Of a DNA stretch of 64,000 bases, positions 7,458-61,000 are shown piece after piece; position 1 is the stretch's first letter, and each line of letters opens with the position of its first letter. Below the pieces are notes generated by a model that was not told the origin of the DNA, ran no database searches, and saw nothing but the letters and a program-made list of their open reading frames with translations. A program made the translations under genes and the position numbers. The DNA lies in NCBI GenBank assembly GCA_021513695.1, contig CP084166.1, positions 2,752,001 through 2,816,000 on the forward strand. Reading direction: 5' to 3'. The DNA comes from Candidatus Heimdallarchaeum aukensis (GTDB taxonomy: Archaea; Asgardarchaeota; Heimdallarchaeia; Heimdallarchaeales; Heimdallarchaeaceae).

Positions 7458-7458
7458 T

Positions 7459-11152: not shown

Positions 11153-11163
11153 GAAGGTGAAAG

Positions 11164-12140: not shown

Positions 12141-12183
12141 TTTGGCAGATAAAAACTTTCTAACTAACATAAGATCGTTATAC

Positions 12184-12627: not shown

Positions 12628-12628
12628 A

Positions 12629-14086: not shown

Positions 14087-14095
14087 GGTGAAAAA

Positions 14096-16126: not shown

Positions 16127-16135
16127 GGTGAAAAA

Positions 16136-17605: not shown

Positions 17606-17610
17606 AAAAA

Positions 17611-19041: not shown

Positions 19042-19054
19042 AGGTGAAAAAAAG

Positions 19055-41381: not shown

Positions 41382-41384
41382 TAA
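40384..41384 (+). pseudogene. RING/PHD-like membrane protein gene (copy 2) disrupted by a -1 frameshift
   Basis: CCAGAAAGGAAGAAG in copy 2 vs CCAGAAAGAGAAGAAG in copy 1; ORF split into 40384..40836 and 40830..41384; keeps native C-terminus ...NMFKT*. Confidence 0.6.
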
Positions 41385-45243: not shown

Positions 45244-46029
45244 ATGGCAGAAGAAAATGAAGGAACATCTGTAGGAGAAGCTATAAAGATTACAGAATTA
45301 GAAAATGAAAAGAAAAAACTGGAAGAAAAAGTCCAAGCTTTGACTGAGGAGGTTAATAAGTTAAAAGAAGAGAATTCGTCTTTAGTCGAGAAAAATAATG
45401 AACTAACAGAAAAACTGAGTAGTTTAGAACAAACCTCTGGAACAGCTGAACAACAAGAACAAGAAGTGAATGAATTAAAGGAAAAGCTTTCTTCTACTCA
45501 ACAAGAAAAAGAAAATTTAAGCCAAGAGTTACAAAAACTAAAAGATGAGATGTTGCGAAAAGATGAAGAATTGAATGAAAAAAATAGAGAACTAAATAGC
45601 ATGAAAGAACAACTAGAAGAAAAGCAAAAAATGATTGATCAACTAAAAGAAGAAGTTTCTACAATTGAAAGAAGTAAATCTGAATTAGAATCACAATTGA
45701 AATCAATTAATGACGAAAAAATGGAAATAGAAGCTAAATACAACGAGCTGCTAAAAGAAACTTCTAAACTAGATGAACTAAAGACGTCGCTTCAAGATAA
45801 AGAAGAGGCATTAAGAAGATTTCAAATAATTGCAGAAACTGATCCATCTTATGCTTGGTTAACTACATTAGAGCAGTACAAAGTTATAGAACTAAAAAGA
45901 CTAGCAATGTCTGCTGGTGCTTCAACTCATGCCATACTTCAATATGTTAAAAAATTAGAAGCTGCAGGACTCGTTGAACTAGAATTTCATGGTAGAGAAG
46001 ACAGCAATCCTGTTGTAAAGTTGAAATAA
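45244..46029 (+). CDS. Coiled-coil protein with C-terminal winged-helix-like domain
   Basis: About 190 aa of heptad-rich E/K/L sequence followed by ...LKRLAMSAGASTHAILQYVKKLEAAGLVELEF. Confidence 0.4.
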   Translation: MAEENEGTSVGEAIKITELENEKKKLEEKVQALTEEVNKLKEENSSLVEKNNELTEKLSSLEQTSGTAEQQEQEVNELKEKLSSTQQEKENLSQELQKLKDEMLRKDEELNEKNRELNSMKEQLEEKQKMIDQLKEEVSTIERSKSELESQLKSINDEKMEIEAKYNELLKETSKLDELKTSLQDKEEALRRFQIIAETDPSYAWLTTLEQYKVIELKRLAMSAGASTHAILQYVKKLEAAGLVELEFHGREDSNPVVKLK

Positions 46030-46089: not shown

Positions 46090-46791
46090 TTACTTGAAAA
46101 GTGACTTAAAATATAACCAAATAATCCTTTTATTTATTTTTGAAGAACCATAATCTCTATGTCCAAAATCATATTCTACTTCTTGAATTCTTATTTTCTT
46201 TGGGAATGCTTTTAGAAAATCAAATAATACTTTATACCCTTCAAGAGTAAACTTTTGTTCTTTTTTTTGGATTAAATCTTTCCATATTTCAGTTTTCGAA
46301 GCAAAGAAACCAGACATTATATCTTGACATTTATTCTTGTTTCTTAGACTTAAAACTATTTTACCAAGTATAGTTGCAGAATAAGAAATTAATTTTCTAT
46401 GAAAAGACCATTTCTCTTTTACTTTTCTTCTTTTTCCTACTACTAAATCAAACCCTTTATTCAGCTCCTCGTAAAATTCAGGAAGTTTTTTAGGTGGATG
46501 TTGAAGATCAGCATCCATTACTAAAAAGTAAGGGGTCTCTGTTTGTAAAATAGCATCTAAAACACTGGCTGTTAAACCATGTACTGGTTTTTTACTTCTA
46601 TCAAGAAATTTAACATTTAAATTTCCTTCAAATGAAATGACATTTTGCTTGGTATTATCAAAGGAACCATCATCTGTAACAATTACTTTAGCTTCTGGAA
46701 CATATTTTTCTAGTTCTTCTAGTAATATCTGTATTGCTTTCTCTTCGTTAAGAGTAGGAACAATAACTGTTAAATTGGAGAAAGAATTCAT
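46090..46791 (-). CDS. GT2 glycosyltransferase, dolichyl-phosphate mannose/glucose synthase-like
   Basis: VIVPTLNEE...VIVTDDGSFDNT ... FLVMDADLQHPP (DxD and QxxRW-region-like motifs of Dpm1-type GT2). Confidence 0.7.
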   Translation of the reverse strand: MNSFSNLTVIVPTLNEEKAIQILLEELEKYVPEAKVIVTDDGSFDNTKQNVISFEGNLNVKFLDRSKKPVHGLTASVLDAILQTETPYFLVMDADLQHPPKKLPEFYEELNKGFDLVVGKRRKVKEKWSFHRKLISYSATILGKIVLSLRNKNKCQDIMSGFFASKTEIWKDLIQKKEQKFTLEGYKVLFDFLKAFPKKIRIQEVEYDFGHRDYGSSKINKRIIWLYFKSLFK

Positions 46792-46955: not shown

Positions 46956-47642
46956 ATGAGTATTTATATAGTTGAAAAAACAGGGGAACTTTCTACATGT
47001 CATGATAAAGATCGTGCATTAAAATCAGAAAATGTATTAATTGTTGTTTCACACATGGATAAAAAAGTTTACACATGGGTGGGGTCAAGAGCTTCTCCCC
47101 AATCAAAATTCGCTTGTGCAAGAGAAACAGCACGAATGAGGATGGAATTGGGTTATCGTGCAGTGAATCTAGAAGAAGCTGATACAACAGAATCATTCTT
47201 GAGAGCTATAGATGAAGTTCTTAATGGAAGTGATAGTTCAGGAACAAGTTTTAGACCAAGGCCTGCTGCTTATTCTTCTCAAATAAAAGAAAAGAAAAAA
47301 GAGAAAATTCGAGAAAAGCAGAAAGAAGTTATTAAGAAAGAAGAACCTAAAGATATAAAAGCTGCTGTTACACCCTCTGTAAAACTCGATGCTTCTTCTC
47401 CTAAAGTTCTTGATATCAATTACGTAGTAAAGCAAACTTCAACTCTTCCACCTATCAATGGGATGATTAGAGATTATATAATAATAGGCGATAAACTATA
47501 TATTGCTCCTGATGAAGATACTTCTGAGGTAGCAATGATGGATTCTCTTCCAGATGGGGGATTTGTGGCAGAGGATTATTTACCAAGATTATATATAGAA
47601 AATGGACGAGTAATAGCTGTAGAACTATGGAGAGAGCAGTAA
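46956..47642 (+). CDS. Gelsolin/cofilin-fold (gelsolin-like) domain protein with C-terminal extension
   Basis: SIYIVEKTGELST...VLIVVSHMDKKVYTWVGSRASPQSKFACARETARMRMELGYRAVNLEEADTTESFL parallels the gelsolin repeat motif (..vw.ie...l.pv........lf.gd.yi.l........iy.WiG..ss.de...aa..a..ld..lg.......E.qg.Es..Fl). Confidence 0.5.
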   Translation: MSIYIVEKTGELSTCHDKDRALKSENVLIVVSHMDKKVYTWVGSRASPQSKFACARETARMRMELGYRAVNLEEADTTESFLRAIDEVLNGSDSSGTSFRPRPAAYSSQIKEKKKEKIREKQKEVIKKEEPKDIKAAVTPSVKLDASSPKVLDINYVVKQTSTLPPINGMIRDYIIIGDKLYIAPDEDTSEVAMMDSLPDGGFVAEDYLPRLYIENGRVIAVELWREQ

Positions 47643-47755: not shown

Positions 47756-48298
47756 TTACTTATTTTCTCCAAGTTTCTTCATTACTAACTTGACTATTGT
47801 GACATAAACATCATTTACTCCTGCTCCTAATTTAGCAGAAGTCTCAAGAACTTGGTAACCTTTACTTTCCCATTCTTTTTTTGCTTGTTCATAAGGTACA
47901 GCTCTTTGTTCTTCTAGATCTGTTTTATTTCCAACAATGATGATTGGTATGTCAGGTACTTTATTTTCTATCTCTGATATCCAATAAGAAATATTTTCAT
48001 ATGATTCTTTTCTAGTAATGTCATAAACCACCACAGCACCATGAGCTCCAGTGTAATACCTTTTCCTTAAGGAAGCTAGACGTTCTTGTCCCACTGTATC
48101 AAATAATACCATTTTTATTTTTGTATCCTCATCAATGTCAACTTCCTTGCTGTAGAAATCCACTCCTAATGTAGGAAGATAATTAACCGAAAATTTGTTC
48201 TTTGTATATCTCACCGCAATACTTGTTTTTCCGACACTATAGTCACCAACATTAATTATCTTAACAATAAAGGTGACATTTTTGTTTGAACCTAACAT
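47756..48298 (-). CDS. Rab/Ras-like small GTPase
   Basis: G1 GDYSVGKTS, G3 FDTVGQE, G4 GNKTDL, G5 ETSAKLG; no CAAX. Confidence 0.8.
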   Translation of the reverse strand: MLGSNKNVTFIVKIINVGDYSVGKTSIAVRYTKNKFSVNYLPTLGVDFYSKEVDIDEDTKIKMVLFDTVGQERLASLRKRYYTGAHGAVVVYDITRKESYENISYWISEIENKVPDIPIIIVGNKTDLEEQRAVPYEQAKKEWESKGYQVLETSAKLGAGVNDVYVTIVKLVMKKLGENK

Positions 48299-48320
48299 TT
48301 ACAGTACAACTCTATAATTA

Positions 48321-48400
48321 TTTTATACTTTATAGTTATTTTATATACTTTATAGTTATTTTATATACTTTATAGTTATTTTATATATTTATGTTTTATA
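48321..48400. repeat. 20-bp tandem repeat x3 plus one degenerate copy (unit TTATATACTTTATAGTTATT) in a divergent promoter region
   Basis: Directly visible at 48321-48340, 48341-48360, 48361-48380 and degenerate at 48381-48400. Confidence 0.75.
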
Positions 48401-48482
48401 TTTTTTGTATCTGACAACTTGAGAAATCTTCCGAATAAGTTATAAGTGATAAACTCTAATAACGATTAGTCAGTATACTGAT

Positions 48483-49373
48483 TTGTTATGTGAGGATAAA
48501 AGCATGTCTTCAAAAGTAATAGAATCAATAGCTTATAGCTATGTAGGAAGATTAATTGAACCCTATCTAACAGAATTTGAAGGTTTAAGGACCACACTAA
48601 AAAAAGCCGGAATAGAGCAAAGTGTTAGGATGTATTTAAGCATTAGACTATTCTGGTCCATAGTTTTATCAATAGTTTCACTTTTTGTTCTAATTGCAGT
48701 AAAAATACTAGTACCAAGTTTTTCAGTCATACTGGTTGTCATATTACCTGTGCTAATTTTGTTGACAATGTTTGTAATAACATGGGTATACCCAAGTTAT
48801 CTGATAGGTGAAAGAAAAAGAAAACTAGAAGCAGCTTTACCCACTGCAGCAAGCTATATGACTGCCATGGCTTCTGCAGGAGTTACACCAGATAAAATTT
48901 TCCTTGCTTTATCTAAAGAAGAAAGCATTGGTGAAGCTATTGTTAAAGATGCTAAAAAAATCTCTCGTGATATTCAAGTTTTTGGTTATGATATTGTTCA
49001 TGCTTTAAGCGAAGCATCATCACGTTCTCCTTCTCCTAAGTATTCAAGTTATTTAGAGGGGATTGTTGCGACTTTTACCTCTGGAGGAGAACTTCAGCGA
49101 TTTTTAGAAGTTTCTACTGAAAACTTGATGAGAGATAAAGTTCAAACTGAAAAGAATTTTATTGAAGCGTTAGGTTTAACTGCAGAGTTGTACATGGTTG
49201 TAGGAGTTGTAACTCCTATTTTCTTTATCGTTATAATTGCAATGATGGCCATGTTGGGTGGTAGTGCAAATACTGGGGCTAATGCTCTTCTAGCAATTAC
49301 AGTTTACATAGTCATACCTGTTGGAATGCTGGTAATTATTCTTTTAGTGGACATGCAACAACCGGAGGATTAA
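48483..49373 (+). CDS. TadB/TadC (FlaJ/GspF-like, T2SSF domain) pilus assembly membrane protein 1
   Basis: Single T2SSF-like domain ...LPTAASYMTAMASAGVTPDKIFLALSKEES... flanked by TM helices. Confidence 0.55.
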   Translation: MLCEDKSMSSKVIESIAYSYVGRLIEPYLTEFEGLRTTLKKAGIEQSVRMYLSIRLFWSIVLSIVSLFVLIAVKILVPSFSVILVVILPVLILLTMFVITWVYPSYLIGERKRKLEAALPTAASYMTAMASAGVTPDKIFLALSKEESIGEAIVKDAKKISRDIQVFGYDIVHALSEASSRSPSPKYSSYLEGIVATFTSGGELQRFLEVSTENLMRDKVQTEKNFIEALGLTAELYMVVGVVTPIFFIVIIAMMAMLGGSANTGANALLAITVYIVIPVGMLVIILLVDMQQPED

Positions 49374-49383
49374 GGTGAGTTAA

Positions 49384-50286
49384 ATGGCAATTAAAGATGA
49401 AGTTGAGATAAAAACGAAAGAGTTTCAGATTAGTGTTGATATAATCTATTGGGTTATAGCAGTTTTTGCGGGATTGGTTATAGTTGTATTAGGTGTTTTA
49501 GATTATATTTCTTCTACTGATTTGATAACCATATTAGATATAAATGACTTTATTATATTAGCCATAATTATATCAATGGGTATTCCAACCTTTTTAATAG
49601 TTTACAGAGAAGAACGTAGACAAGCTCGTATTGATGAGAATTTACCATATCTCCTCCGTGAAATCTCAAATGCACAACGAACAGGTATGAGTCTCCCTCG
49701 AGCAATAAAAGAAGCAGCGAAGAGACACTATGGTCCTTTAACTCCCGAATTACGTAAAATGTCAAGTAAAATTTCTTGGGGTATTCCTTTTAGTAAAGCT
49801 ATGTCTGATTTTCAAAGTGCAATAAATACACAGATGGCTCAGAGAGCTACCATTCTAATTTTAGAGGCTGAACGTTCTGGAGGAAATCTAGAGGATATTT
49901 TTGAATCAACAGAGAAACATGTTCAACAGTTACTTGATCTCAAAAAAGAACGAGAAGGAGCAATGCGACCCTACTTGATGATTTGTTATGCTGCATACAT
50001 CATTTTTGTCTTAGTGGTCTTCATATTATTCCAAACATTCTTTTATCCTTTTGGTACATTGGATGTTTCTAGTGAGATGTTTAGTTTTAGTATAGATTTA
50101 GATACACTTTCTGTTCTGTTCCTTCATATGCTAGCTGTCCAAGGCTTCTTCACTGGTCTTGTTGCTGGAAAAATGGCAAAAACAAAAGTTAAAGCAGGAT
50201 TAATGCATTCTGTGATACTAATGTTTATTGGTTGGTTTGCATTTAAAGTTCTCATTCAAAATCAACTTATCACACTAAATTTGTAA
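49384..50286 (+). CDS. TadB/TadC (FlaJ/GspF-like) pilus assembly membrane protein 2
   Basis: Second T2SSF-like domain ...LPYLLREISNAQRTGMSLPRAIKEAAKRH...; GGAGGA RBS. Confidence 0.55.
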   Translation: MAIKDEVEIKTKEFQISVDIIYWVIAVFAGLVIVVLGVLDYISSTDLITILDINDFIILAIIISMGIPTFLIVYREERRQARIDENLPYLLREISNAQRTGMSLPRAIKEAAKRHYGPLTPELRKMSSKISWGIPFSKAMSDFQSAINTQMAQRATILILEAERSGGNLEDIFESTEKHVQQLLDLKKEREGAMRPYLMICYAAYIIFVLVVFILFQTFFYPFGTLDVSSEMFSFSIDLDTLSVLFLHMLAVQGFFTGLVAGKMAKTKVKAGLMHSVILMFIGWFAFKVLIQNQLITLNL

Positions 50287-50295
50287 GGTGATTGT

Positions 50296-50727
50296 ATGGT
50301 AAAAATCGAAACTGAAATAAAAAATATCAAAGCAGATATTGAGGAACTAAAACGAACTTTAAACCAAATGAACTTTAATTTGGTTAGAATAATGGGCACA
50401 ATAGAAAAAGGAATTGCCAGTGTTTCTACTACAGAAGATGGAGAAAAAGTGGTAACTTCTGGAGTTTCTGTTGATTTGGGACCAATTGAAGATAAAATAG
50501 AAAAACTGGAAAAAGAAATGGTTACCAAAAAAGAGCTGAGTAAGCTCGAAGCACGAGTCTCTGAAATAGTTTCTGAAAAAATTAAAAGAGCTGAAGAAAC
50601 ACAAGATAGAGCTCAAAATCTGCTTGAAAAAGGAATGGAATTGGTGGAATTACAGTCAACTCTGGCAGAAATAAAAACACTATTGGAAGAAAGAATTCTC
50701 GGAGATTTGGAAGAAGAAACAGAGTAA
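50296..50727 (+). CDS. Small coiled-coil protein
   Basis: 143 aa, E/K-rich heptad pattern; within pilus locus. Confidence 0.35.
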   Translation: MVKIETEIKNIKADIEELKRTLNQMNFNLVRIMGTIEKGIASVSTTEDGEKVVTSGVSVDLGPIEDKIEKLEKEMVTKKELSKLEARVSEIVSEKIKRAEETQDRAQNLLEKGMELVELQSTLAEIKTLLEERILGDLEEETE

Positions 50728-50736
50728 ATCAAATAG

Positions 50737-51888
50737 GTGATTAATCCCGTGATTCTAAAAAAACTAAGAAGAATGAGAAAAGGACAAGTTAGGGGGATAG
50801 ATTTTGCTTTAGGCATGCTTATTTTTATTATTGCTTTTAGTCAAGTAATAATAGTTCTTACTCATCTTCTTGTACCTTCAATAATGCAAATGGAGAATTA
50901 TTCAGAATACCAAGAGTTGGATAAATTATATGGGTTAATATATTATTCAAAAGGAAATCCTTCTAATTGGGCAACAATAGGAACTTCTTCGTTAACAGAT
51001 TTTTCTTTAGGATTAAGTGGTGATGATGGACAATTATCTTTTTCTAAAATAAATAGGTTAACATCAGATATTGCTGATTATTGGAAAATTGATTATCAAT
51101 TTGTAAAAACATCTTATGGACTTTTGAAAGATTTCGCTATCTCTGTAGATTCAGTTATAAAGATCCAACTAGATAGTTTTTCTGCAGGTTTTGGCTCTCT
51201 CACTGTAAAAGGAAAAGTTTTGGAGGATACAGTATCGATTGAAAATGTTGCAATCACTACTTTTGCTTTGGATAAAGAAAATAACTTGTTTATTAATACT
51301 ACAACAACAAAGAAAAATACAAATGAAGCTACTTTTATCTCAACCCTTTCAGTATCTACTTCAAATTATTATACTATTGTAATTTTTGCTAATATTGATG
51401 AAATTTATGAAACATATTATGTGTTTAGAATCTACAAACCTAATGATAGTTTTGAATATGAGAAAGTAGATTTTAACTTTCGACCATTAGTTTTAGAGAA
51501 CAAAGAAAAACATTCATCAGCAATCGATGTTCGCTTTTCTAGTCCAGCTATAACAGAAGAAGCAGTAGCTACTGTTCTATTTTCAAAAAGAGATGTAGGA
51601 AAAAGTTTCTATAATCAGACCTTATCTCAAGAATCTTCTTTAGAAGAAGGAAATTTTTATTTAGGAACAAACATTCCTATCCCCACTCAAGGATTGGCAG
51701 TAGTTGTTGTACAAGAAAATGATGGGTTAAATTACAGAGCAGGGTACATGGGTATCCCCATGTTTTTGACAGAGACTGCTTCAAGCATTTTTGGAAATGA
51801 AGAAATTCTTTCAGGTGAATACATTTATTCATTTGATCTGCTTTATGTCAGAAACAGATTAGTTAAATGTCAAATTTGGGTGAATTAG
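50737..51888 (+). CDS. Pilin-like protein with class III (type IV prepilin) signal peptide
   Basis: N-terminus KKLRRMRKGQVRGIDFALGMLIFIIAF (basic stretch, K-G, hydrophobic helix). Confidence 0.5.
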   Translation: MINPVILKKLRRMRKGQVRGIDFALGMLIFIIAFSQVIIVLTHLLVPSIMQMENYSEYQELDKLYGLIYYSKGNPSNWATIGTSSLTDFSLGLSGDDGQLSFSKINRLTSDIADYWKIDYQFVKTSYGLLKDFAISVDSVIKIQLDSFSAGFGSLTVKGKVLEDTVSIENVAITTFALDKENNLFINTTTTKKNTNEATFISTLSVSTSNYYTIVIFANIDEIYETYYVFRIYKPNDSFEYEKVDFNFRPLVLENKEKHSSAIDVRFSSPAITEEAVATVLFSKRDVGKSFYNQTLSQESSLEEGNFYLGTNIPIPTQGLAVVVVQENDGLNYRAGYMGIPMFLTETASSIFGNEEILSGEYIYSFDLLYVRNRLVKCQIWVN

Positions 51889-52356
51889 ATGAGAAAATTG
51901 TTAAAATCAAAAAAAGCACAACTGTTTGTTATTGAAGCTTTCATTGCTGTTTCTGTAATGTTAATAATGGTCATCGCAATTTACGAGGTACAATTGGCTA
52001 CTGTCCCTCCAAAAGAGCAAGGATATACTGAACTAACCTATAACATACTAGAGTCTCTAGATCAGAGTGGAATACTTGAAGAGTATGTAATTGCTCTTAA
52101 GTCTGAAAATCCTGATACAATAGGAAATGTTCAAGAAAAAATAAGTTTGGCAGTTTACTCATCAATTCCCGAAAATGCTGATTTTTATTTCTACTGCAAG
52201 AATTTGACAACAAATGAAATAGTTACTTCGAGTATAATTAATATTCTAGATACCGATCAAGTAAATGTTTTCACTTCAGAATATTTAATTACAGAAGTTA
52301 ATGGAGAGTTTGATCCATATAGTTTCTATTTAGCTGTTTGGATAGTAGGTGTCTAA
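51889..52356 (+). CDS. Pilin-like protein with class III signal peptide
   Basis: MRKLLKSKKAQLFVIEAFIAVSVMLIMVIAIY. Confidence 0.5.
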   Translation: MRKLLKSKKAQLFVIEAFIAVSVMLIMVIAIYEVQLATVPPKEQGYTELTYNILESLDQSGILEEYVIALKSENPDTIGNVQEKISLAVYSSIPENADFYFYCKNLTTNEIVTSSIINILDTDQVNVFTSEYLITEVNGEFDPYSFYLAVWIVGV

Positions 52357-53038
52357 TATGAATAAAAGAAAATTCTTTCAAAATAAAAAAGGAGAAGTAT
52401 TTATTTTACTTGCTCTAGTTATTCTACTCTATCTAATGTTATTGTCTACAACAATTTATAATGTTACCCAGATTCCTTATGTGGATCCTGCTCCCGAACA
52501 AGACCAAACAAACAATTATATCGAAAATGCTATTTCTGCACTATATGATCTCGTAGATGTTGCTTTAAATGAATATTCACATGGAATTGAAGAAACAACT
52601 GTTCGAGCTAACTTTGTTGAAAATGTAAAAACAATCGAAAATTATCTCGATGAACACAATCTTTTATCTACTTTTACAGTGAATGAAACAAGTTTTAGTA
52701 TTACAAACTCTTCAAAGAGTGAGAATCCTGTTTACATATCGTTTGAATGTTCCATTTCTATCTCGATTATTTCTATTAACCAGAGATTTGAAGCAAATTT
52801 AGAAATTAAAGTGAGTTATTACTTGGAAATATCTGAAATATTAGGTACTGAAAACTACATTTATTGCTACTCAATAAAACAAGGAATAGAGTTTCCATTA
52901 AGTGATTGTCAGGTAACTATCTCTCCAACCACAACAGTAACAAATATCGGGGATGGTAGTTACATGGCTGATTTACAAACAGGACAGTTAATAAAAGTGG
53001 TCTTTAACAATAACATTCTTTTGTGGAAGGAGATTTAA
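52349..53038 (+). CDS. Pilin-like protein with class III signal peptide
   Basis: MNKRKFFQNKKGEVFILLALVILLYLML. Confidence 0.5.
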   Translation: MSNMNKRKFFQNKKGEVFILLALVILLYLMLLSTTIYNVTQIPYVDPAPEQDQTNNYIENAISALYDLVDVALNEYSHGIEETTVRANFVENVKTIENYLDEHNLLSTFTVNETSFSITNSSKSENPVYISFECSISISIISINQRFEANLEIKVSYYLEISEILGTENYIYCYSIKQGIEFPLSDCQVTISPTTTVTNIGDGSYMADLQTGQLIKVVFNNNILLWKEI

Positions 53039-53077
53039 AAATAGAAAAATGATTAAAAAAGCTTCTATTTATTTTAA

Positions 53078-53707
53078 CTATTGAATGTCAATAGACACTC
53101 CTTCATCCTTTTCTTCTTCCTTACGTTGAATAACAACTTCTAATACACCATTGTTGTATTTTGCTTTAGCAGTCTCAATTTTTACTGGAACAGGTAATTC
53201 TATTTTCTTTTCGTATTTTCTATCTTTTGAATGTGCCTTTATACTTAACCTTGATTCAGAACCTGTGAGTTTTATGTCTCCTTTACTAATTCCTGGGACT
53301 TCAGCGATCACTCTAACTTTATCTTTCTCTTTAAAAATATCAATAAGTGGTTCTCTAACATCATATGTTTCTACATGCCCTGTTCCTCTAGGCTTTACAT
53401 TTCCAAATTGTCTAAAACTAGGTTTTCCATCAGGGTCAAAGCCAATCTGAAAACCATAAACAAATTGATTTCTTAACAAATCTTCTAAACTTGTATCAGC
53501 ATCTAGATTCTCTCTTAAGTTTTTCATTAACTCTTTGATCATATTATCTATCATTCTTCCAAAACTTGAACCCTTCATAAATGGCATAAACTGTTCCATA
53601 AACTCATCTATGTCAAATCCATCGAACGAAAAGTCATCAATTTTAAAAGGAAATGGAAAGTCATCATCATCTGGTTTTTTACCTTTTTTCTTTTTATCAT
53701 TTGGCAT
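53078..53707 (-). CDS. Hsp20/alpha-crystallin small heat-shock protein with acidic/Phe-rich N-terminus
   Basis: ACD region ...VRVIAEVPGISKGDIKLTGSESRLSIKAH...KIELPVPVKIETAKAKYNNGVLEVVIQRKE. Confidence 0.75.
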   Translation of the reverse strand: MPNDKKKKGKKPDDDDFPFPFKIDDFSFDGFDIDEFMEQFMPFMKGSSFGRMIDNMIKELMKNLRENLDADTSLEDLLRNQFVYGFQIGFDPDGKPSFRQFGNVKPRGTGHVETYDVREPLIDIFKEKDKVRVIAEVPGISKGDIKLTGSESRLSIKAHSKDRKYEKKIELPVPVKIETAKAKYNNGVLEVVIQRKEEEKDEGVSIDIQ

Positions 53708-53796
53708 TCTATCACCAATCAGACTTATATTTATTCACAAATATAAACTTAACAATATAAACAAAATAAGAGAAAGGAAAATGGAGAATTAATTTA

Positions 53797-55326
53797 TCAT
53801 CTCAAAGCCTTCTTCGCTTTTTCCAATGTTCTATCAGGGTCAGAATTATACTCTTGAATAATAGAAGCAACATCTTCAAAGTAACGGATTCTCTTTTTTA
53901 CCATCCAGCGTAGAACTGTTTTTCTCCTTTCAAGTTCATCATGGATATCTTGCTCTGTTATTCCAGTATTTTCCATTATTTTTTCTAAGACATAACTTCT
54001 ACCAAAGTAAATAAATGAATCTTCTCTTGGATTCCACTGAAATACTTTGTTTGTGAGAATTTCTTCAGTAACTGGATCTAACCCTATTAATTCTGTAATA
54101 GTTAGTGTTCTTCTTGCAAATTTTCCTTGATGGCGTACTTTTCTAACTACATGGATAATATCTAAACTCTTCATCATGCTTCTTGGAATATTCATTGGTT
54201 TACTCTCAAGCCTGTGGATAACACCTTCAACTGAGTCACCATGAATGGTACCTAGCCCTCTATGCCCAGTACTCATAGCTTGGAACATTGCATAAGCTTC
54301 CTCACCTCTAATTTCTCCTACAATAATATAGTCTGGTCTTTGTCTCATAGCTGCTCGAAGTAACTCGTACATAGAAATTTGTCCTCGTCTATATCCTGTT
54401 TCTGTTGCTTCTCCAAAACCAGAGCGAACAACGCTTGGAATCCAGTTCTCATGTGCTAAATTTAGTTCTGCTGTATCTTCAATTGTAACGATTTTCATAT
54501 CGGGTTTAATCATCATACTTAGGGTATTAAGTAAAGTAGTCTTTCCTGCAGCCGTACCTCCTGCCACGAGAATAGATACATTGTGCTCCATTATGAACCA
54601 ATAATAAGCTGCAATCTCGATGTCAATAGTATTATAAAGAATTAAATCTGTAATTGTGAAGGGATCAGCCTTAAATTTACGAATAGTAAAGGTTGAACCT
54701 CTTTGAGTTACTTCTCTTCCATAAGTTAGTTGCACTCTGCTACCATCTTCTAAACTTGCATCCAATAAAGGATTAGCAATACTTACATGTCTTCCTGCTC
54801 TCTGAGCTAATTTAATAATAAAGCTGTTCAATTCGTCCTCTGTATCAAAAGATACATTAGTTGCAATAGATTCATATTTTCTGTGCCAAACATAAATAGG
54901 AATACCTACACCATCACATGATATATCTTCAATATTAGGGTCAAGCATAAGTGGTTGTATCTTCCCAAAGCCAATGAGATCTCTTGTCAAATAATACATT
55001 ATTTTCTCGAACTGATTTTCATTAAGTTTTATACGATATCGTTTAATGACATCAACTATTTTCTTTTTTAGATATTCTTCTGCTTTAGTAAAATCTTTGA
55101 GAACACTAAAATCAACATCTAATTCTTCAATGAGAATCTCTAAAATCTTGTTGTAAATAGCTTTTTCCTTGCTGTCTAGTGGGATTTCCACAACCATATA
55201 TTGGGTTCTTTGTGTAACAGGATTCGTTTGAATTAATACATAACTAAAGGGAGGACTAACAGGATAGGTTTCTTCTAAAAGAGGAACTGAACTGTCCATT
55301 GACATTGTACCGAAATTTTCATCCAT
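53797..55326 (-). CDS. Type IV pilus/archaellum-type secretion ATPase (FlaI/TadA/VirB11 family)
   Basis: Walker A VAGGTAAGKTTLLNTL, Asp box, Walker B, His box; N-terminal domain typical of FlaI-like ATPases. Confidence 0.8.
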   Translation of the reverse strand: MDENFGTMSMDSSVPLLEETYPVSPPFSYVLIQTNPVTQRTQYMVVEIPLDSKEKAIYNKILEILIEELDVDFSVLKDFTKAEEYLKKKIVDVIKRYRIKLNENQFEKIMYYLTRDLIGFGKIQPLMLDPNIEDISCDGVGIPIYVWHRKYESIATNVSFDTEDELNSFIIKLAQRAGRHVSIANPLLDASLEDGSRVQLTYGREVTQRGSTFTIRKFKADPFTITDLILYNTIDIEIAAYYWFIMEHNVSILVAGGTAAGKTTLLNTLSMMIKPDMKIVTIEDTAELNLAHENWIPSVVRSGFGEATETGYRRGQISMYELLRAAMRQRPDYIIVGEIRGEEAYAMFQAMSTGHRGLGTIHGDSVEGVIHRLESKPMNIPRSMMKSLDIIHVVRKVRHQGKFARRTLTITELIGLDPVTEEILTNKVFQWNPREDSFIYFGRSYVLEKIMENTGITEQDIHDELERRKTVLRWMVKKRIRYFEDVASIIQEYNSDPDRTLEKAKKALR

Positions 55327-55585
55327 TTTATCTCTATATCGTTAAAGCATTCATTACTTATAATTTTTTTGAATTTATCTAAAGAAAAAGGCAAAACGTG
55401 AAAAAAGCTTGTAAAAGAATTTACAAAGACTAATGACAATTTGACGAGAATAAAAAGTGAAAAACAGAAATTTATTTGATTTGCAAAACTTTTTCATGTT
55501 AAAAAGATAAAAAGAATTAAAGTTAATTGGTAATTGTTAGTTAATTTATAGTAACTGTTAATCTGTTAATTGCTATGATTCTTTA

Positions 55586-56182
55586 TTAGATGTATCTAGG
55601 AGATAACATTCCTATAATAATAAGGAACATTTTCTTGAAAAAGTTTAGAGGTTTAATAGAATCAAATATCTCTTTCAATGATCTTGATGTATCTCCAGTA
55701 AAAACTCTAAAAGCACATGCTTTATCATATTTACAATTCACACAATTTTTCCTGAACTTTTCTCCTTCTTCTAAAAGCCCATTTTCAGCAATTATGTTTT
55801 GAAATTCATTAAATGCCGATATGTCTCCATTGAATAAATCTATTTTTTCTCCGAAATTGTCATCAAAGAGTTCAGCCATCAATCTTAATCTGTTAGTATA
55901 TTCGTCGACATTAACTGGGGGTTTCAAAGCAAATATTGCATTGATTCTTTCAGTTTGATAGCTGAGAACTATTGATTTTTCCATTTCGAATAAATGAAAT
56001 TCATAGGATTGAGCTCCATCATAAATAATTTTTGCACTAAATAAAGCAGATTTTAATAAGGATTCATCGTCTATAGTCGCTTCTTTAGATAAATCAACAC
56101 AATGAACACCTATATGACACATTAAAGATCTTGCAAAGAGTGGTATTCCTGCTTGATTTGAAATAATTAAATTTTGTATCAT
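55586..56182 (-). CDS. Roadblock/LC7 (MglB-like) domain protein with C-terminal Cys cluster
   Basis: MIQNLIISNQAGIPLFARS... roadblock-type N-terminus; CVNCKYDKACAF near C-terminus. Confidence 0.5.
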   Translation of the reverse strand: MIQNLIISNQAGIPLFARSLMCHIGVHCVDLSKEATIDDESLLKSALFSAKIIYDGAQSYEFHLFEMEKSIVLSYQTERINAIFALKPPVNVDEYTNRLRLMAELFDDNFGEKIDLFNGDISAFNEFQNIIAENGLLEEGEKFRKNCVNCKYDKACAFRVFTGDTSRSLKEIFDSIKPLNFFKKMFLIIIGMLSPRYI

Positions 56183-56296
56183 TGTTAATTATAATAAAAA
56201 ATGAACATTTAAATACTTTTCATAGAACTAATTTTGTCTTTTTGTATTCCTAAACGATGAAAAATGTAAGAATTGAATAATCAAATTTATGAAAAA

Positions 56297-56773
56297 TCAA
56301 ACTCCACTTGAAAAAGTAATTCTTTTGTTTGTTCCATCATAAAGATAAGCTATAATCGGATTCTTTTGAGAGCTCACTATTTCTCCAGAAAATGTTACTT
56401 CAGATTTTTCAAGATATAGTGTTACCGTTGCTGAAACATCCTCATTTTCTACTAAATATGCGTACATGAGGTACTCTGTTGCACTATCTGGTAGTAAATA
56501 AGTTATTACATACTCTTCTTCTTGAATTTTATCAGGTAAAGATAATGATAGTTGTATTGTAAAATCTGTTGCTCCTTGTTGAATTTTTTTGTCTCCAAAC
56601 TGTTTCAAGTCTAGAATTGAGTTAGCGACTTTTTGCAGTATTTGTTCTAAACTTGATTCTATTGCTCTATTTTCCAAAGAATTGTTTAAGCTGACCATAG
56701 TTGCTGATATTCCTGCAATAGCTAATGAACCAATCATAATAATGGATAAATACATAACATACTCGCTTGGCAA
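56297..56773 (-). CDS. Putative pilin-like/secreted membrane-anchored protein
   Basis: N-terminal hydrophobic helix, Ser/Thr-rich beta-type body similar to neighbour pilins; no clear basic prepilin motif. Confidence 0.3.
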   Translation of the reverse strand: MPSEYVMYLSIIMIGSLAIAGISATMVSLNNSLENRAIESSLEQILQKVANSILDLKQFGDKKIQQGATDFTIQLSLSLPDKIQEEEYVITYLLPDSATEYLMYAYLVENEDVSATVTLYLEKSEVTFSGEIVSSQKNPIIAYLYDGTNKRITFSSGV

Positions 56774-56782
56774 ACCTTTTTC

Positions 56783-57640
56783 TCACCCTATAATATTTAT
56801 ATTGATGTTTATCTTAATAATGTTAACGTAAAGATAATGAAAACTGTAATTTTCATTTACTGGAACATATACAGGCTGTTCTTCTTCCAAGGTATGGTGT
56901 TCTCCATAAACATTAGCTTTTCCTATTAAATCCGAATTAAAAGCAATTGGTTCCAGAGATGTTTTCTCTGTTCCACTAAATTCAATTTCTAAGGATATAG
57001 ATTTTGTTGTATTTTCGACTCCAAACTCGCTGTTAGTGCTAATTGAGACATGAATAATATCAATAGTAAAAATTTCTGTTGTCCCTTCTGTCTTATAATC
57101 AATATCGATGCTGTATCTATAGTATAAAGACATATACAAATAAGCAGGATCAAATATTGTTCTGGTCTCATTTATCACTGTAATGTCATTATATAATTTG
57201 GTACTACCATTAATAAATAAATAATCTTGGTCTTCAGGGCCTTTAAGATATCTGTGTTCTCCTTCTTCGAAATCTTCAACATTTGTACTTTTATGTACTA
57301 ATCTAGTCAAGTTTTCTGCTAGAATTGATTTGCTAAAAGAACTTGCTGTATCATATAAGGTGAAATAAACTACTTTACTATTATCGAAGTATAAAGAACC
57401 ATCTTCTTGGTAATAATCAAAAGAAATAGCCTGAGGTGGAGGATTTACAAGTAAGTTCTGAATGTTTGAGTCTAGTGCACTAAAATATAAACGAACAGAA
57501 TTATTGTAACTATTATCTTTAAACTGTATAATGCTAGGAAACATATAAACTAAAGATATGCCTATAGCTGCTAATATAAGCGTAAACATAAGTATTGTTG
57601 CTACTATTGGAGATACTCCCTTCTTTCTATTCAGTTTCAT
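56783..57640 (-). CDS. Archaeal type IV pilin/archaellin-like protein (class III signal peptide)
   Basis: MKLNRKKGVSPIVATILMFTLILAAIGISL is a textbook prepilin-peptidase site (KG followed by VSPIVATIL). Confidence 0.6.
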   Translation of the reverse strand: MKLNRKKGVSPIVATILMFTLILAAIGISLVYMFPSIIQFKDNSYNNSVRLYFSALDSNIQNLLVNPPPQAISFDYYQEDGSLYFDNSKVVYFTLYDTASSFSKSILAENLTRLVHKSTNVEDFEEGEHRYLKGPEDQDYLFINGSTKLYNDITVINETRTIFDPAYLYMSLYYRYSIDIDYKTEGTTEIFTIDIIHVSISTNSEFGVENTTKSISLEIEFSGTEKTSLEPIAFNSDLIGKANVYGEHHTLEEEQPVYVPVNENYSFHYLYVNIIKINININIIG

Positions 57641-58097
57641 TCTCTTGTTTTAATTTGACTATAACAAATATAACCTTATTGGTTTTTCTTTGCTCTATGA
57701 AATAAGCTAATAATAATTTACATACTTAGACTTAATGATAACTTATTATTTGTTAATAGTTATCAAATTTTTTTCAACTCTCTTTTTCTTTTATCATTTT
57801 ACTCACTTTTCATTGCATTACTTTTTAAAACAATTTTACTTTTTAGTTTCTCTTTATTTTATCTAGTAAGTCGTATATAGTTTATGTAATGGCATTTTGT
57901 CGGAAGTACTGGGGCTTGAAATTACTGTTTGCAAAATAAGTTTTTTACACTATGATGTAAAAAAAAATTAAGTGAAAAAAAGTTAGGTGCTTATAAAAGG
58001 TAAAAGAGTTTTAAATGGAAAGAGAATCTTTAAGAAAAATTTTCTTGTTTAAGTACTAAAGTCTCTAAAAGTTATTAGAAGAAAATAGGGGATAATA

Positions 58098-61000
58098 TTG
58101 GCAGATCTAAAACTATCAGAAAATGCATTAACAGTACTACAAAAAAGGTACTTACTAAAAAATGAGAAAAACGAAGCAATTGAAACTCCAGAACAGATGT
58201 TTGAAAGAGTGGCAAAAAGTATAGCTTCAAGTGAAGAAGAAAAAAAAGAATTTTATGAATTGATGACTTCTTTAAGATTTCTACCTAACAGCCCTACTCT
58301 TATGAACGCAGGAACGAAGCTAGGTCAACTATCAGCTTGTTTCACTGGAGAGCAAGTAATAATCACAGCTGAAGGAAATAAGCAAATAAAAGATATTCAA
58401 ATTGGAGATTTAGTCCTGACAGCTTCAGGTAATTTTAGAAAGGTTACCCAAACTATGCAAAGAAAAGTTGACAAAAGATACATTATTGATGTTTTGAAAC
58501 TACCTAACTCTACTCTTTCTGTAACAGAAGATCACCCTATTCTTACCTACAAAAATGGAAAAATTAAATGGAGTTTAGTAAAAGAATTAAGTAAAAACGA
58601 TTTTGTAGCTTTATCATACCCAAAGGAAATTGAAGATATTTCTTCAATTAATGTTATAGATTACTTATCTGATAGAGATTATAAAGTAAAGGATGGTATG
58701 ATATTAAATAAAAATACAAAAGTTGGAATAGAATCAGATGAAATAAGTGATCAAGAAATTCCAATAAGAAATAAAATAGAAGTAGATGGAGAGTTTCTTA
58801 GATTTTTAGGTTATTATGCTAGTGTGGGAGAACTAGATAAAAAAATAGTAAGATTTGCTTTTTCAGATAAAGAGATGGATTATGTTGAAGAAGTAATATC
58901 AATTGCAAAAAGTAAATTTGAATTAGATGCAAGAATAGAAAACTCTGATGGAAATATAGTGATTGTGCAATTTTATTCATCCATACTATCTGAATTCGTT
59001 AAGAAAGTCATAGGAGAAGGAAACAACAAAAGAGTTCCCATATGGATATTGAAATTACCTCCAGAAAAACAAGAAAACTTTGTTTTAGGGTGTTTTAGAG
59101 GAGATAACTCTTTATTTTCTAGTAGTTATATGCTTGATGCTCGTTTATCTGCGTGTAATGATAATTTAGTATATTCAATATGGATCATGTTAATGAGAAT
59201 GGGGATAGTTCCCAATCTTGATAAATCCCCTATTCCAAAAGGTGAAACCACCTATTCTTATTCTTGTTATATTGGAGAAACAGAAAAGAGCGATTCCTTT
59301 GTAGAGATTCATGGAAAAGACGGTAAAGGAATTTCTCAATTATCTTTACAAAAATTAAATCATATAATTGTCAATGATACTGTTTTTCTCCCTATACGAA
59401 GTATCGAATGTATCGAAGAACCTGTGACTGTTTATAATCTAGAAGTAGAGGAGGAACATACATATGTTGCAAATTTTGTTTCAGTTCACAATTGTTTTGT
59501 ACTTCCAATAGATGATTCTCTTCCCTCCATTTTTGATGCAGTGAAAAAAGCGGCATTAATACACCAAAGTGGAGGAGGATGCGTTGCTGAAGGAACAGTA
59601 ATACCTACAGAAGAATTCGGTTTTATACCCATTGAAAAGATACCTGGATTTGAAAACATTCCTTCTGACGAACAAGGACATGATTGTGAACCTTTCACTG
59701 TTTATTCATTTGATGAGGACAAAGAATCTTTCACAAAAGGAACAGTAACAAAACTTTGGAAATTCAAGAAAAATAAATATTTGAGCATTAAATTCGGAAC
59801 AGAAGGAGTAATAGAAGTCACACACTGGCATCCTTTCATAGTTTATGTCCCTTCTGAAGAGAAAAAGAAAGGAGGATATTATACAGAAAAAAGAGCAGAT
59901 GAATTGAAAGTTGGAGATCTGTTGGTTAGTCCCTCTACCCATAAGATAACTGAAACTTCTAGTATTTCCGATGTACACAAGGTTAAAGTAGAAGAAATAA
60001 AAGAAATAGAAGAAGAAAAAGTATTTTATGACTTTACAGTACTTAAATATAATAACTATCTAGCAGGTTCTAAACAATTTACAGTTATCCATAATACAGG
60101 TTTTAGCTTTAGTAATATTAGACCAAAAAATGATGTAGTCAAAACTACTGGGGGGGTAGCTTGTTTTCCTGAAGATGTAAGGATTTATACTAACAAGGGA
60201 TTATTAACAATCAAAGATATAATCCAATCTGATCAACCAATTAAAGCTTTGACTCATGATGGATTCCACGAAATAATAAATAAATACGATAACGGAGATG
60301 CTGAAGTTTACAGACTTATTACATCTAATGGATATTCAGTTAAGGCAACCTCTACTCATAAATTTTTAACAATAGAAAATAATGAGTTGGTACTAAAGCC
60401 TCTTAATAAACTTCAAGAAGGAGATTATGTTCTTCTTTTTTCTACTTTTGAATCTGTTGATGAAAAAGAACCATTTAAGCTATCTCCTATTACTGACGAT
60501 GGTCAAACTTTTGATGAAATTTATCTTGATGAAGATCTTGCCTATTTCATAGGATTAACTTATGCAGATGGACATATTATTGATGATGGAAGACATTATA
60601 GCGTAAGAATCACTTTAAACAAGAACCAAATACGTATAATCGAAAAAATAAAGAAAATAGTTCAAACTAAGTTTGACTATGATTTGAAAGTCTATGAGCG
60701 TAAAAATGTAAATAAAGTTGAACTTGTTCTACACGGAAAAAGATTTGTAAAATTGTTAAAAGAAAATAATTTACTTAAAGAAAAATGTGAAAATATTCGT
60801 ATTCCAGAATTATTATTTCAAAGCCCAAGAAATGTCCTAAGCTCATTTATTGCAGGATACTTCGATGGTGATGGTCATGTAAGTAAAAGCGGGCGAATTA
60901 GCATTAAAACAATATCCAAACAAATGAGTGAAGATTTTTCATTATTGATAACGCGGTTAGGTGTACTATCTACAACTCATATTAGTCCCCCTATTTATGG

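Follow-up and report, generated by a model that had tools for sequence, protein, structure and literature searches.

Several described systems resemble parts of the locus considered here. Euryarchaeal clade 2 type IV pili, which are sister to the archaellum clade, combine a VirB11/GspE-type ATPase with two tadC-like platform genes and several pilins carrying class III signal peptides, and their prepilin peptidase is encoded elsewhere (Makarova et al. 2016, PMC4858521). In Myxococcus and Thermus, a Ras-superfamily GTPase (MglA) is paired with a roadblock/longin-superfamily protein (MglB), which supplies no catalytic finger (PMC3199381). In Asgard archaea, single-domain gelsolins with a C-terminal extension have been reported, such as Thor 1DGelX (ProGel fold, PDB 7C2F; PMC7444086), as well as longin fusions to two-component signalling domains and a rare conserved neighbourhood of LAMTOR1-like roadblock, Rab-like GTPase and DENN genes (Liu et al. 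preprint, 10.1101/2020.10.19.343400).

The DNA analyzed here is a 64,000-nucleotide stretch (the window) from Candidatus Heimdallarchaeum aukensis, and the open reading frames listed in a preliminary description of it are genuine genes. The reading that probably explains the region best is that a pilus system, a gelsolin and GTPase module, and a relocated longin-fold gene are three separate neighbours, with no MglA/MglB wiring among them.

A pilus-like system conserved across Heimdallarchaeia

The region encodes machinery for a type IV pilus-like surface filament, whose genes and Hsp20 neighbour are as follows (a slash marks the cleavage site):

48483-49373, plus strand: platform membrane protein corresponding to the N-terminal half of FlaJ/TadC (Pfam T2SSF, 7.2e-10)
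49384-50286, plus strand: platform membrane protein corresponding to the C-terminal half of FlaJ/TadC (Pfam T2SSF, 8.9e-20)
50296-50727, plus strand: cytoplasmic coiled-coil protein, 143 aa, pilus core, kept in every locus
50737-51888, plus strand: large pilin-like protein, 383 aa, pilus core, RKG/QVRGIDF read from the sequence, weak DUF7287 match
51889-52356, plus strand: pilin-like protein, 155 aa, pilus core, KKA/QLFVIEAF read from the sequence
52349-53038, plus strand: pilin-like protein, 229 aa, pilus core, KKG/EVFILLAL read from the sequence
53078-53707, minus strand: Hsp20/alpha-crystallin protein, 209 aa, charged N-terminal extension (Pfam HSP20, 2e-10)
53797-55326, minus strand: pilus assembly ATPase of the archaeal GspE2/FlaI family, 509 aa (Pfam T2SSE, 1.6e-39)
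56297-56773, minus strand: DUF7266-type pilin-like protein, 158 aa, N-terminal hydrophobic helix, pilus core (Pfam DUF7266, 3.8e-6)
56783-57640, minus strand: pilin-like protein, 285 aa, class III signal peptide KKG/VSPIVATIL read directly from the sequence

A nine-gene pilus core is common to 12 Heimdallarchaeaceae loci. All nine genes also occur, as a one-directional operon, in the distant loci L019 and L020, whose ATPase is 67% identical; GTPase, gelsolin, Hsp20 and longin genes could not be found there even at tblastn E<=10. This type IV pilus-like assembly system is thus conserved across Heimdallarchaeia.

The two T2SSF membrane proteins noticed earlier match successive halves of FlaJ/UpsF. 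The first, whose probable start is the ATG at 48507, aligns to positions 9-244 of 555 of an ArlJ/FlaJ model, and the second to 266-541 of 555, to 175-452 of 465 in another such model, and to positions 265-457 of 484 in UpsF. Judging from these alignments, the FlaJ/TadC-type platform is split into two genes. The ATPase, 85-98% identical across Heimdallarchaeaceae, was rightly assigned to the FlaI/TadA type; the solved structures closest to it are those of A. fulgidus GspE2 (PDB 2OAP, 1.5e-130), FlaI (5.7e-88) and CpaF (2.8e-48).

At least four pilins with class III signal peptides had been proposed, and five pilin-like genes were found, four of them with canonical motifs. The 285-aa protein, a core member and candidate major or minor pilin, scores 18.3 bits against TIGR02537 (archaellin/pilin N-terminal domain; cut-off 20), and every related locus, even the distant L018-L020, keeps it with the motif [KR][GA]/[VI]SP[IV][IV]A. 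Its gene is adjoined in all loci by that of the 158-aa DUF7266-type protein, which begins MPSEYV and lacks the canonical cleavage motif. Homologues of the 229-aa pilin carry KG/Q[VI]F in all loci, L019 and L020 included, those of the 155-aa pilin carry K[GA]/QLF[IV][IV]E in all loci, and the motif [KR]G/Q.RGID of the 383-aa protein is kept in L019 and L020.

The coiled-coil protein, 35% identical in L019 and L020, has only weak family matches, all of coiled-coil type (e.g., FlaC_arch, E 0.051, 14.4 bits versus a cut-off of 27.8). The Hsp20 gene follows the ATPase gene in the same direction of transcription, does so in all Heimdallarchaeaceae loci whose sequence reaches past the ATPase gene, and is absent from L019 and L020; it is a family-specific accessory of Heimdallarchaeaceae. 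The earlier report of an Hsp20 gene and two coiled-coil genes therein stands for Hsp20 and for one coiled-coil gene (50296-50727); the second (45244-46029) is outside 47756-57640.

A divergent archaellum, that is, a rotary swimming filament instead of an adhesive or twitching pilus, would account for the FlaI model being the top NCBIfam match of the ATPase (1e-128), for ArlJ/FlaJ being the top match of both platform halves, and for the weak FlaC-like match of the coiled-coil protein. However, the FlaI score is 430 bits, below the equivalog cut-off of 550, and the nearest solved relative of the ATPase is the non-archaellar GspE2. A Pfam search with a threshold of E<=0.1 detected none of FlaD/E, F, G, H and X in the locus. 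FlaH/KaiC-like genes and archaellin-family matches were likewise missing, and euryarchaeal clade 1 and clade 2 pili also combine two tadC-like genes with several pilins (PMC4858521). An archaellum is therefore very unlikely, as the preliminary description had also held.

By similarity, the closest known system appears to be the euryarchaeal clade 2 pilus (PMC4858521), with which the locus shares an ATPase nearest to GspE2 (2OAP, 1.5e-130), two tadC-like platform genes, several class III signal-peptide pilins and, apparently, a prepilin peptidase encoded elsewhere, none having been found among the scanned ORFs of >=110 aa in the window. The sub-threshold FlaI match fits this assignment because clade 2 is sister to the archaellum clade. 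In contrast to clade 2, the host belongs to Heimdallarchaeia, outside that census; a coiled-coil gene is constant, such a gene being described only for haloarchaeal subclade 4F (PMC4858521); an Hsp20 gene lies within the locus in one family; and only weak matches link the pilin families to Pfam DUF7266, DUF7287 and DUF7289.

From what is known of these families, the pilin-like precursors would enter the membrane and be processed by a class III signal peptidase whose gene lies elsewhere. A hexameric GspE2/FlaI-family ATPase would bind the FlaJ/TadC-type platform made of two polypeptides, and its use of ATP would raise pilins from the membrane into a surface fibre. The cytoplasmic coiled-coil protein would serve as the constant accessory and Hsp20 as the family-specific one.

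The longin-fold gene and the proposed GTPase switch

Two further genes had been linked to the pilus:

47756-48298, minus strand: Rab-like small GTPase, 180 aa (Pfam Ras, 3.6e-51)
55586-56182, minus strand: longin-fold protein, 198 aa, not counted in the conserved pilus system

The GTPase gene is divergent from the first T2SSF gene, as described before. Its product carries the motifs GDYSVGKT, PTLGVDF, DTVGQ, NKTD and SAK, has no C-terminal cysteine, and finds Rab14, Rab35, Rab1 and Sec4 as top PDB matches (~1e-37). The gene at 55586-56182 had been called roadblock/LC7; the superfamily was correct, but the branch was not, since the protein has a longin fold with an added five-cysteine C-terminal part. 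It has no Pfam, NCBIfam or PDB-sequence match and no predicted transmembrane segment (maximum 19-residue hydropathy 1.27), and five cysteines are invariant (C22, C28, C147, C150 and C156). Unlike the longin domains of VAMP7, Sec22b, Ykt6, AP sigma subunits, TRAPP and NPRL2/3, it lacks detectable similarity to Pfam/PDB longins, a SNARE motif and a transmembrane anchor, and its invariant cysteines suggest a metal site. This cysteine-rich protein probably acts in signalling, as a metal- or redox-binding module.

The preliminary description proposed that these two proteins form an MglA/MglB-type switch-GAP pair governing the site or timing of pilus assembly. In this one genome, as in Myxococcus and Thermus (PMC3199381), a Ras-superfamily GTPase and a roadblock/longin-superfamily protein are indeed encoded near type IV pilus genes. 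However, the GTPase is Rab-like and without MglA signatures, having DTVGQ (DxxGQ) instead of TxxGQ and Pro42 instead of Arg before switch-I Thr43 (PMC3199381); the second protein differs from MglB in its longin topology and five-cysteine extension; and the two genes are ~7 kb apart, with no shared operon.

The comparison with relatives, suggested at the time as a check, showed no co-occurrence of the longin and GTPase genes with the pilus genes. Apart from the window, H. endolithica (L006) is the only case in which the longin gene separates the pilin gene from the ATPase gene; the longin gene is missing from the 11 other Heimdallarchaeaceae loci (11 of 13 genomes; no tblastn match), and in 10 of these 11 the pilin gene directly adjoins the ATPase gene. 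The homologues at 51-58% identity occupy unrelated genomic contexts, where no pilus gene is encoded within 10 kb and no GTPase gene adjoins them, and in GCA_030603365.1 the homologue and the pilus locus are on separate contigs. Moreover, the pilus core occurs without the GTPase or longin gene, and the GTPase orthologue group occurs without pilus genes. Asgard genomes hold dozens of GTPase and roadblock/longin genes, mostly outside operons, and a second Ras-like GTPase gene lies just 15 kb away, so that chance proximity is plausible. The suggested search for an arginine/asparagine finger is not a valid test because MglB itself has no such catalytic finger. An MglA/MglB-type GTPase-GAP pair wired to the pilus is thus not supported, and we regard that model as extremely unlikely.

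The longin-fold gene instead appears to have moved in between a pilin gene and the ATPase gene in a single genus, Heimdallarchaeum. In H. aukensis it is on the same strand as both, with gaps of 115 and 260 bp, and may be co-transcribed with them. Together with 90% identity in the sister species and a sensory role indicated by related modules fused to PAS-histidine kinases, this could mean that the protein was recruited as a new pilus accessory or sensor independent of the GTPase, for example in redox or metal coupling. Such recruitment is nevertheless improbable: the position is seen in just two closely related genomes, and a TnpB element and other rearrangements nearby make neutral relocation possible.

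The gelsolin-domain and Rab-like GTPase genes

The other side of the GTPase gene, and the spacer separating it from the pilus genes, contain the following:

46090-46791, minus strand: family-2 glycosyltransferase, possibly dolichyl-phosphate sugar synthase-like (Pfam Glycos_transf_2, 3.9e-23)
46956-47642, plus strand: gelsolin-domain protein, 228 aa, 1DGelX-like layout, convergent with the GTPase gene
48309-48392, unstranded: 20-bp tandem repeat ACTTTATAGTTATTTTATAT, 4.3 copies, between the divergent GTPase and platform genes (TRF score 133)

The repeat, already recognized in the preliminary description, has 92% matches among its copies, and its unit is matched 4 times where 0.16 matches would be expected by chance. 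In H. endolithica the spacer is otherwise conserved and holds a single degenerate copy, and the repeat is a species-specific expansion.

In the gelsolin protein, the gelsolin domain at the N terminus is followed by a disordered K/P-rich linker and, at the C terminus, by a small conserved beta domain. Its closest known counterpart is Thor 1DGelX, a single-domain Asgard gelsolin extended at the C terminus, in which the extension is a predicted coiled coil instead of such a linker and beta domain (PMC7444086).

In every locus whose sequence extends that far, the GTPase gene adjoins a gelsolin-like gene. This adjacency spans three deep lineages of Heimdallarchaeia, two of them without nearby pilus genes, and four arrangements. 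The convergent pair is the commonest (L007, L008, L010, L011, L015, L016, L021, L023, L030, L031, L034); the pair is inverted as a unit in the window and L006; it is divergent in L022, where the GTPase and platform genes point the same way; and a same-strand tandem pair with gaps of ~75-190 bp occurs in L024, L025, L027, L028, L040, L044, L046 and L047, with no pilus gene within 5-7 kb. The nearest out-of-family relatives of the GTPase (42-49% identity) likewise have no pilus genes within 5-7 kb, and among the best matches whose context was checked, all adjoin a gelsolin-domain homologue. The flanks of the pair differ wholly by lineage: a platform gene and a family-2 glycosyltransferase gene (the latter in most Heimdallarchaeaceae), an HD-domain gene and TrmB, or unknown genes and a methyltransferase gene. 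These comparisons indicate that conservation ties the GTPase gene to the gelsolin gene and not to the pilus genes. Because the lineages with tandem pairs collapse into two independent clades, the independent observations are few, and since the pair is convergent in Heimdallarchaeaceae, no shared transcript is possible there.

The module adjoins the pilus locus only in Heimdallarchaeaceae, within a larger inherited syntenic block. In that family it could have taken on the task of coordinating pilus assembly with the actin cytoskeleton, for example by siting pili on actin-supported protrusions: three different local layouts all leave it immediately next to the first platform gene, the GTPase gene of L022 is 136 bp upstream of that gene and co-directional with it, and a divergent intergenic region of 184 bp lies between the two in the window. 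However, the housekeeping gene for an intein-carrying ribonucleotide reductase (RNR) is equally constant on the other side, adjoining the 285-aa pilin gene in 12 of 12 loci, and RadA, GluRS and PRAI remain nearby on the other side of the block. With this constant neighbour and synteny up to RadA, the pilus adjacency is weak evidence; it is absent outside Heimdallarchaeaceae, and no precedent for such coupling is known. Recruitment of the pair to the pilus is therefore doubtful, and three separate neighbours remains the preferred reading.

The pairing resembles the LAMTOR1-like/DENN case (10.1101/2020.10.19.343400) as a rare conserved neighbourhood with an Asgard Rab-like GTPase, but the partner here is a gelsolin-domain protein, and neither a DENN nor a LAMTOR gene is present. 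No mention of a conserved gelsolin/Rab-like GTPase adjacency was found in the searchable literature, and this pairing is the lead that deserves follow-up. A single-domain, 1DGelX-like gelsolin and a Rab-like GTPase would constitute a two-gene module kept adjacent in at least three deep lineages, whatever flanks it, and we infer that the GTPase switch and the putative actin-binding gelsolin most likely act jointly on the actin cytoskeleton.

The pilus locus and the surrounding genes

The window has a G+C content of 31.5%. The genes in and around the pilus locus were assigned by combining an ORF listing with family scans, as follows.

Genes in and around the pilus locus (coordinates, strand, product)
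46090-46791, minus strand, GT2 glycosyltransferase
46956-47642, plus strand, 228-aa protein
47756-48298, minus strand, Ras-family GTPase
48483-49373 and 49384-50286, plus strand, two T2SSF genes
50296-50727, plus strand, coiled-coil protein of 143 aa
50737-53038, plus strand, three pilin-like genes
53078-53707, minus strand, Hsp20
53797-55326, minus strand, T2SSE ATPase
55586-56182, minus strand, 198-aa protein
56297-57640, minus strand, two pilin-like genes

The pilus machinery is largely as the preliminary description had proposed. The T2SSE/FlaI-type ATPase is confirmed by Pfam T2SSE (1.6e-39, 136 bits against a cut-off of 24.9), and its nearest solved relative is A. fulgidus GspE2 (PDB 2OAP, 1.5e-130), with FlaI and CpaF next. 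Both TadB/C-like genes were assigned to the T2SSF family (39.3 and 71.4 bits, Pfam cut-off 25.2), and the two products align with the FlaJ/UpsF models over the N-terminal and the C-terminal half, respectively, indicating one platform split in two. The expectation of at least four pilin-like proteins with class III signal peptides also held, since four of them carry the canonical [KR][GA] site, short basic N-terminus and hydrophobic helix, all kept in orthologues, and are class III pilins by sequence, with cleavage predicted; one of the four fell just short of TIGR02537 (18.3, cut-off 20). The fifth pilin-like protein (56297-56773, minus strand), which was recognized by a DUF7266 match (3.8e-6), starts with MPSEY[IV] in all relatives (orthologues in L007-L020) and, in contrast to the other four, lacks a basic N-terminus and a G/A cleavage site. 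No Peptidase_A24 match, which would mark a prepilin peptidase, was found among the window ORFs scanned; such enzymes (PibD/FlaK/EppA) are described as usually encoded away from pilus loci (PMC4858521).

An archaellum was also considered. The ATPase reached 430 bits with the FlaI equivalog model, whose cut-off is 550, and the family scans gave no match to FlaH/F/G/X/D/E or archaellin and a FlaC-like match of 14 bits on the coiled-coil protein, which agrees with the earlier preference for a pilus. Two distant pilus loci, L019 and L020, whose ATPase is 67% identical, contain all nine core genes, namely those of the ATPase, the two platform proteins, the coiled-coil protein and the five pilin-like proteins, in a single-direction operon; tblastn at E ≤ 10 detected none of the GTPase, gelsolin, Hsp20 and longin genes there. 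In layout, the core most resembles the euryarchaeal systems of clades 1 and 2, in which two tadC-like genes occur (PMC4858521). The pilus core is a new example of the archaeal type IV pilus (T4P) kind, and its mechanism would be that of the archaeal T4P families that it resembles. The locus is best described as ordinary and well conserved in Heimdallarchaeia, and it offers a candidate for the surface filaments of the archaea most closely related to eukaryotes.

Several other features of the locus were observed. The Hsp20 gene (53078-53707, minus strand), whose product has an N-terminal extension rich in lysine and aspartate, lies directly 3' of the ATPase gene throughout Heimdallarchaeaceae and is missing in L019 and L020; such a constant companion is unusual for a pilus locus. 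The 20-bp tandem repeat between the GTPase gene and the first platform gene is real and restricted to H. aukensis; a conserved regulatory array was rejected, as H. endolithica carries a single degenerate copy, the rest of the spacer being conserved. The ribonucleotide reductase (RNR) large subunit gene (58089-64000, plus strand) extends past the window end, its reading frame staying open from 58089 for over 1,970 codons; it is full of inteins, having Ribonuc_red_lgN and Intein_splicing/Hint domains with several inteins. Relatives differ in their intein content, the length of the same gene varying between about 670 and over 1,870 aa. On the other side, the PRAI-GluRS-dCD segment that lies from GT2 to RadA in relatives is replaced in Heimdallarchaeum by a coiled-coil/winged-helix gene (45244-46029), and a TnpB/OrfB_IS605 gene (42477-43355, minus strand) is flanked by dCTP deaminase and RadA; the region has evidently been rearranged locally.

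Farther away, a complex I-like (Nuo/Fpo-type) operon of 12 genes, including four antiporter-like subunits (8183-19432, plus strand), shows a distinctly higher G+C content (0.36) than its surroundings (about 0.30). Moreover, four genes of eukaryote-signature type were found at 376-1038 (minus), 6164-7039 (minus), 38242-39264 (plus) and 40830-41384 (plus), comprising a GPP34/GOLPH3 homologue (2e-18), a V4R-domain (TRAPPC3-related) protein and two RING-finger proteins.

The 198-aa longin-fold protein

In the preliminary description, the 198-aa protein had been called a roadblock/LC7 protein and suggested to form, with the GTPase, an MglA/MglB-like module acting on the pilus. A search of Pfam (E ≤ 0.1), NCBIfam and PDB profiles gave no match, and the predicted fold is the sole informative source on this protein. 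In the AF2 model, which was built from 29 homologues and is of moderate confidence (mean pLDDT 66), two strands come first and two helices last, which is the longin order, and in structural alignment the longin matches cover 109-122 residues compared with 91-94 for roadblock. The modelled protein thus has a predicted longin fold (beta2-alpha-beta3-alpha2, with longins as the nearest structural neighbours). Neither a Robl_LC7 match nor the alpha-beta-beta-alpha-beta-beta-beta topology with an N-terminal helix was found, and the roadblock label can be kept only as an approximation. A SNARE-like protein with a tail anchor was also considered and rejected, since hydropathy over 19 residues peaks at 1.27, the hydrophobic stretch spans about 10 residues, and both a heptad SNARE motif and a transmembrane segment are absent.

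The protein contains exactly five cysteines, each invariant across the family. A profile search that covered 1.8 billion representative proteins recovered the longin-like module in three further forms: a 703-aa protein joins it to a PAS-HisKA_2-HATPase histidine kinase, proteins of 364 and 384 aa contain it duplicated in tandem, and one of 345 aa combines it with a histone fold; the fused or duplicated forms are proteins P0220, P0223, P0224 and P0250. The kinase-fused, tandem and histone-fold forms suggest that the cysteine-rich module is a sensory or signalling module with a putative metal or redox ligand, rather than a dedicated GAP.

The relationship between this gene and the pilus genes was investigated by using the ATPase as an anchor, which gave 15 loci from contigs (one genome per species) onto which all window proteins were mapped. 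Among the anchored loci, the longin gene lies between the pilin and ATPase genes elsewhere only in H. endolithica (L006); no match could be detected in the other 11 Heimdallarchaeaceae loci (L007-L017), in 10 of which a pilin gene abuts the ATPase gene. In the exception, L008, an unrelated 2.6-kb insertion (7386-9965) with ORFs of 356 and 107 aa occupies the junction. Because this insertion and the longin gene of Heimdallarchaeum share the same junction, it seems permissive to insertions. Homologues of the longin gene at 51-58% identity occupy two other neighbourhoods, one with a GFO/IDH/MocA oxidoreductase, an epimerase and an ABC transporter, and the other with DegV and a HAD hydrolase. No pilus genes were found within 10 kb of these homologues, and no GTPase gene adjoins them in the five loci compared (L001-L005), the nearest being about 9 kb away in one locus. 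The assembly GCA_030603365.1 has the longin homologue and the pilus locus on separate contigs (7 and 8, respectively). The longin-fold gene does not travel with the pilus genes, and its presence in the pilus locus is a genus-specific arrival.

The Rab-like GTPase and its gelsolin-domain neighbour

The GTPase matched Pfam Ras with 173 bits and contains the motifs GDYSVGKT, PTLGVDF, DTVGQE, YYTGA, NKTD and SAK. Its PDB matches include Rab14, Rab35, Rab1 and Sec4 at about 1e-37, and the best 60 of 893 are Rab, Ypt or Sec4 without exception; its orthologues are labelled 'Rab family GTPase' by NCBI. Judged by its sequence (G1-G5, Rab-type switch, RabF-like motifs and best matches to Rab), it is a Rab-like GTPase, and not a bona fide eukaryotic-type Rab, since it ends in ...VMKKLGENK and has no C-terminal prenylation cysteine. 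The MglA-like assignment was not supported. MglA has TxxGQ instead of DxxGQ, and its switch-I Thr directly follows an intrinsic Arg that is absolutely conserved (PMC3199381), whereas the present protein has D67-T-V-G-Q71 and Pro42 before Thr43. The same source reports that MglB contributes no catalytic finger, so the arginine/asparagine finger proposed as a check is not applicable. A second Ras-family GTPase gene (32589-33176), whose product is 32% identical to the first, lies in a tight three-gene operon (30811-35527, plus strand) with overlapping stops and starts, together with genes for a 592-aa protein without a family match and a 784-aa HEAT-repeat protein; the three genes may constitute a GTPase-effector operon.

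In Heimdallarchaeaceae, the first platform gene and GT2 enclose two genes, that of the GTPase (58-80% identical) and that of the 228-aa protein. Their order is most commonly convergent; the unit is inverted in the window and L006, and the two genes are divergent in L022, where the GTPase and platform genes point in the same direction. The RNR gene adjoins the outer pilin gene in all 12 Heimdallarchaeaceae loci, and PRAI, GluRS, dCTP deaminase and RadA are kept on the opposite side. Because these flanking genes are equally conserved, the proximity of the GTPase to the pilus genes is embedded in general synteny and was discounted as functional evidence.

Outside the family, most of the closest GTPase homologues adjoin a divergent homologue of the 228-aa gene. 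These include L024 (49%) and L025, L027 and L028 (43-47%, BLASTP), in which the 228-aa homologues show 19-30% identity across both domains and are in tandem with the GTPase gene on the same strand; pilus genes were not found within 6-7 kb. A metagenome scan with the profile of the 228-aa protein added L040, L043, L044, L046 and L047, each with a GTPase gene immediately downstream and no pilus genes in the flanks at hand (L043 is a 1.8-kb contig). The GTPase accompanies the pilus genes only in Heimdallarchaeaceae. A switch of the MglA/MglB type acting on an archaeal pilus would be notable if true, and a small GTPase linked to archaeal pili is not described in the searchable part of the literature; such a module is not supported by the comparative data.

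The 228-aa protein was modelled with AF2 from 37 homologues. The N-terminal domain is confident (pLDDT >90 at residues 11-90) and is followed by a K/P-rich disordered linker (93-149) and a small C-terminal beta domain. At the sequence level, the family profile matched ProGel (1.4e-7) and Loki 2DGel (3.8e-6). The modelled gelsolin/cofilin fold and the profile similarity identify it as a gelsolin-domain protein with putative actin binding. In architecture it is similar to the 1DGelX proteins described by Akil et al. (2020), who reported actin severing by the Thor member of this class.

The gelsolin-domain protein is the conserved genomic partner of the GTPase. The tandem gelsolin-GTPase loci collapse to two clades; thus the pair has been kept in three deep lineages whose flanking genes are unrelated, and the independent lineages behind it are few. 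A 1DGelX-like gelsolin-domain gene and a Rab-like GTPase gene are adjacent in every examined locus that reaches the neighbouring gene. The distant tandem-clade GTPases all share a conserved acidic-FSFWQ motif at the C-terminus, which reads EFSFWQKA in four of eight.

The wider literature provides some context for these results. Tran et al. 2024 (PMC10933270) reported that Asgard GTPase genes lie generally outside operons with roadblock, longin and TRAPPC3 genes, which according to these authors makes it difficult to assign a regulator (GAP or GEF) to a given GTPase. In a preprint by Liu et al., the conserved neighbourhoods listed are ESCRT and LAMTOR1-like/Rab-like/DENN only, and a gelsolin-GTPase gene pair is not described in the searchable literature. 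According to a 2025 preprint, an Arf GTPase co-precipitates with Lokiactin and gelsolins, which is compatible with GTPase-actin links in the Asgard phylum.

With gene order as the basis, the most economical reading is that the two proteins would form a functional pair of a GTPase and an actin regulator. A more specific proposal, which we offer tentatively and with some doubt, is that in Heimdallarchaeia the GTPase and the 1DGelX-like gelsolin act as a switch directly controlling an actin-severing/capping protein, and that the pair of Heimdallarchaeaceae may also be tied to the pilus. The gelsolin-GTPase partnership is more valuable than the pilus switch originally claimed. It is concrete and testable, and relevant to the question of whether actin dynamics came under the control of GTPases before eukaryotes arose; if true, the pair would represent an archaeal forerunner of eukaryotic GTPase-to-actin signalling.
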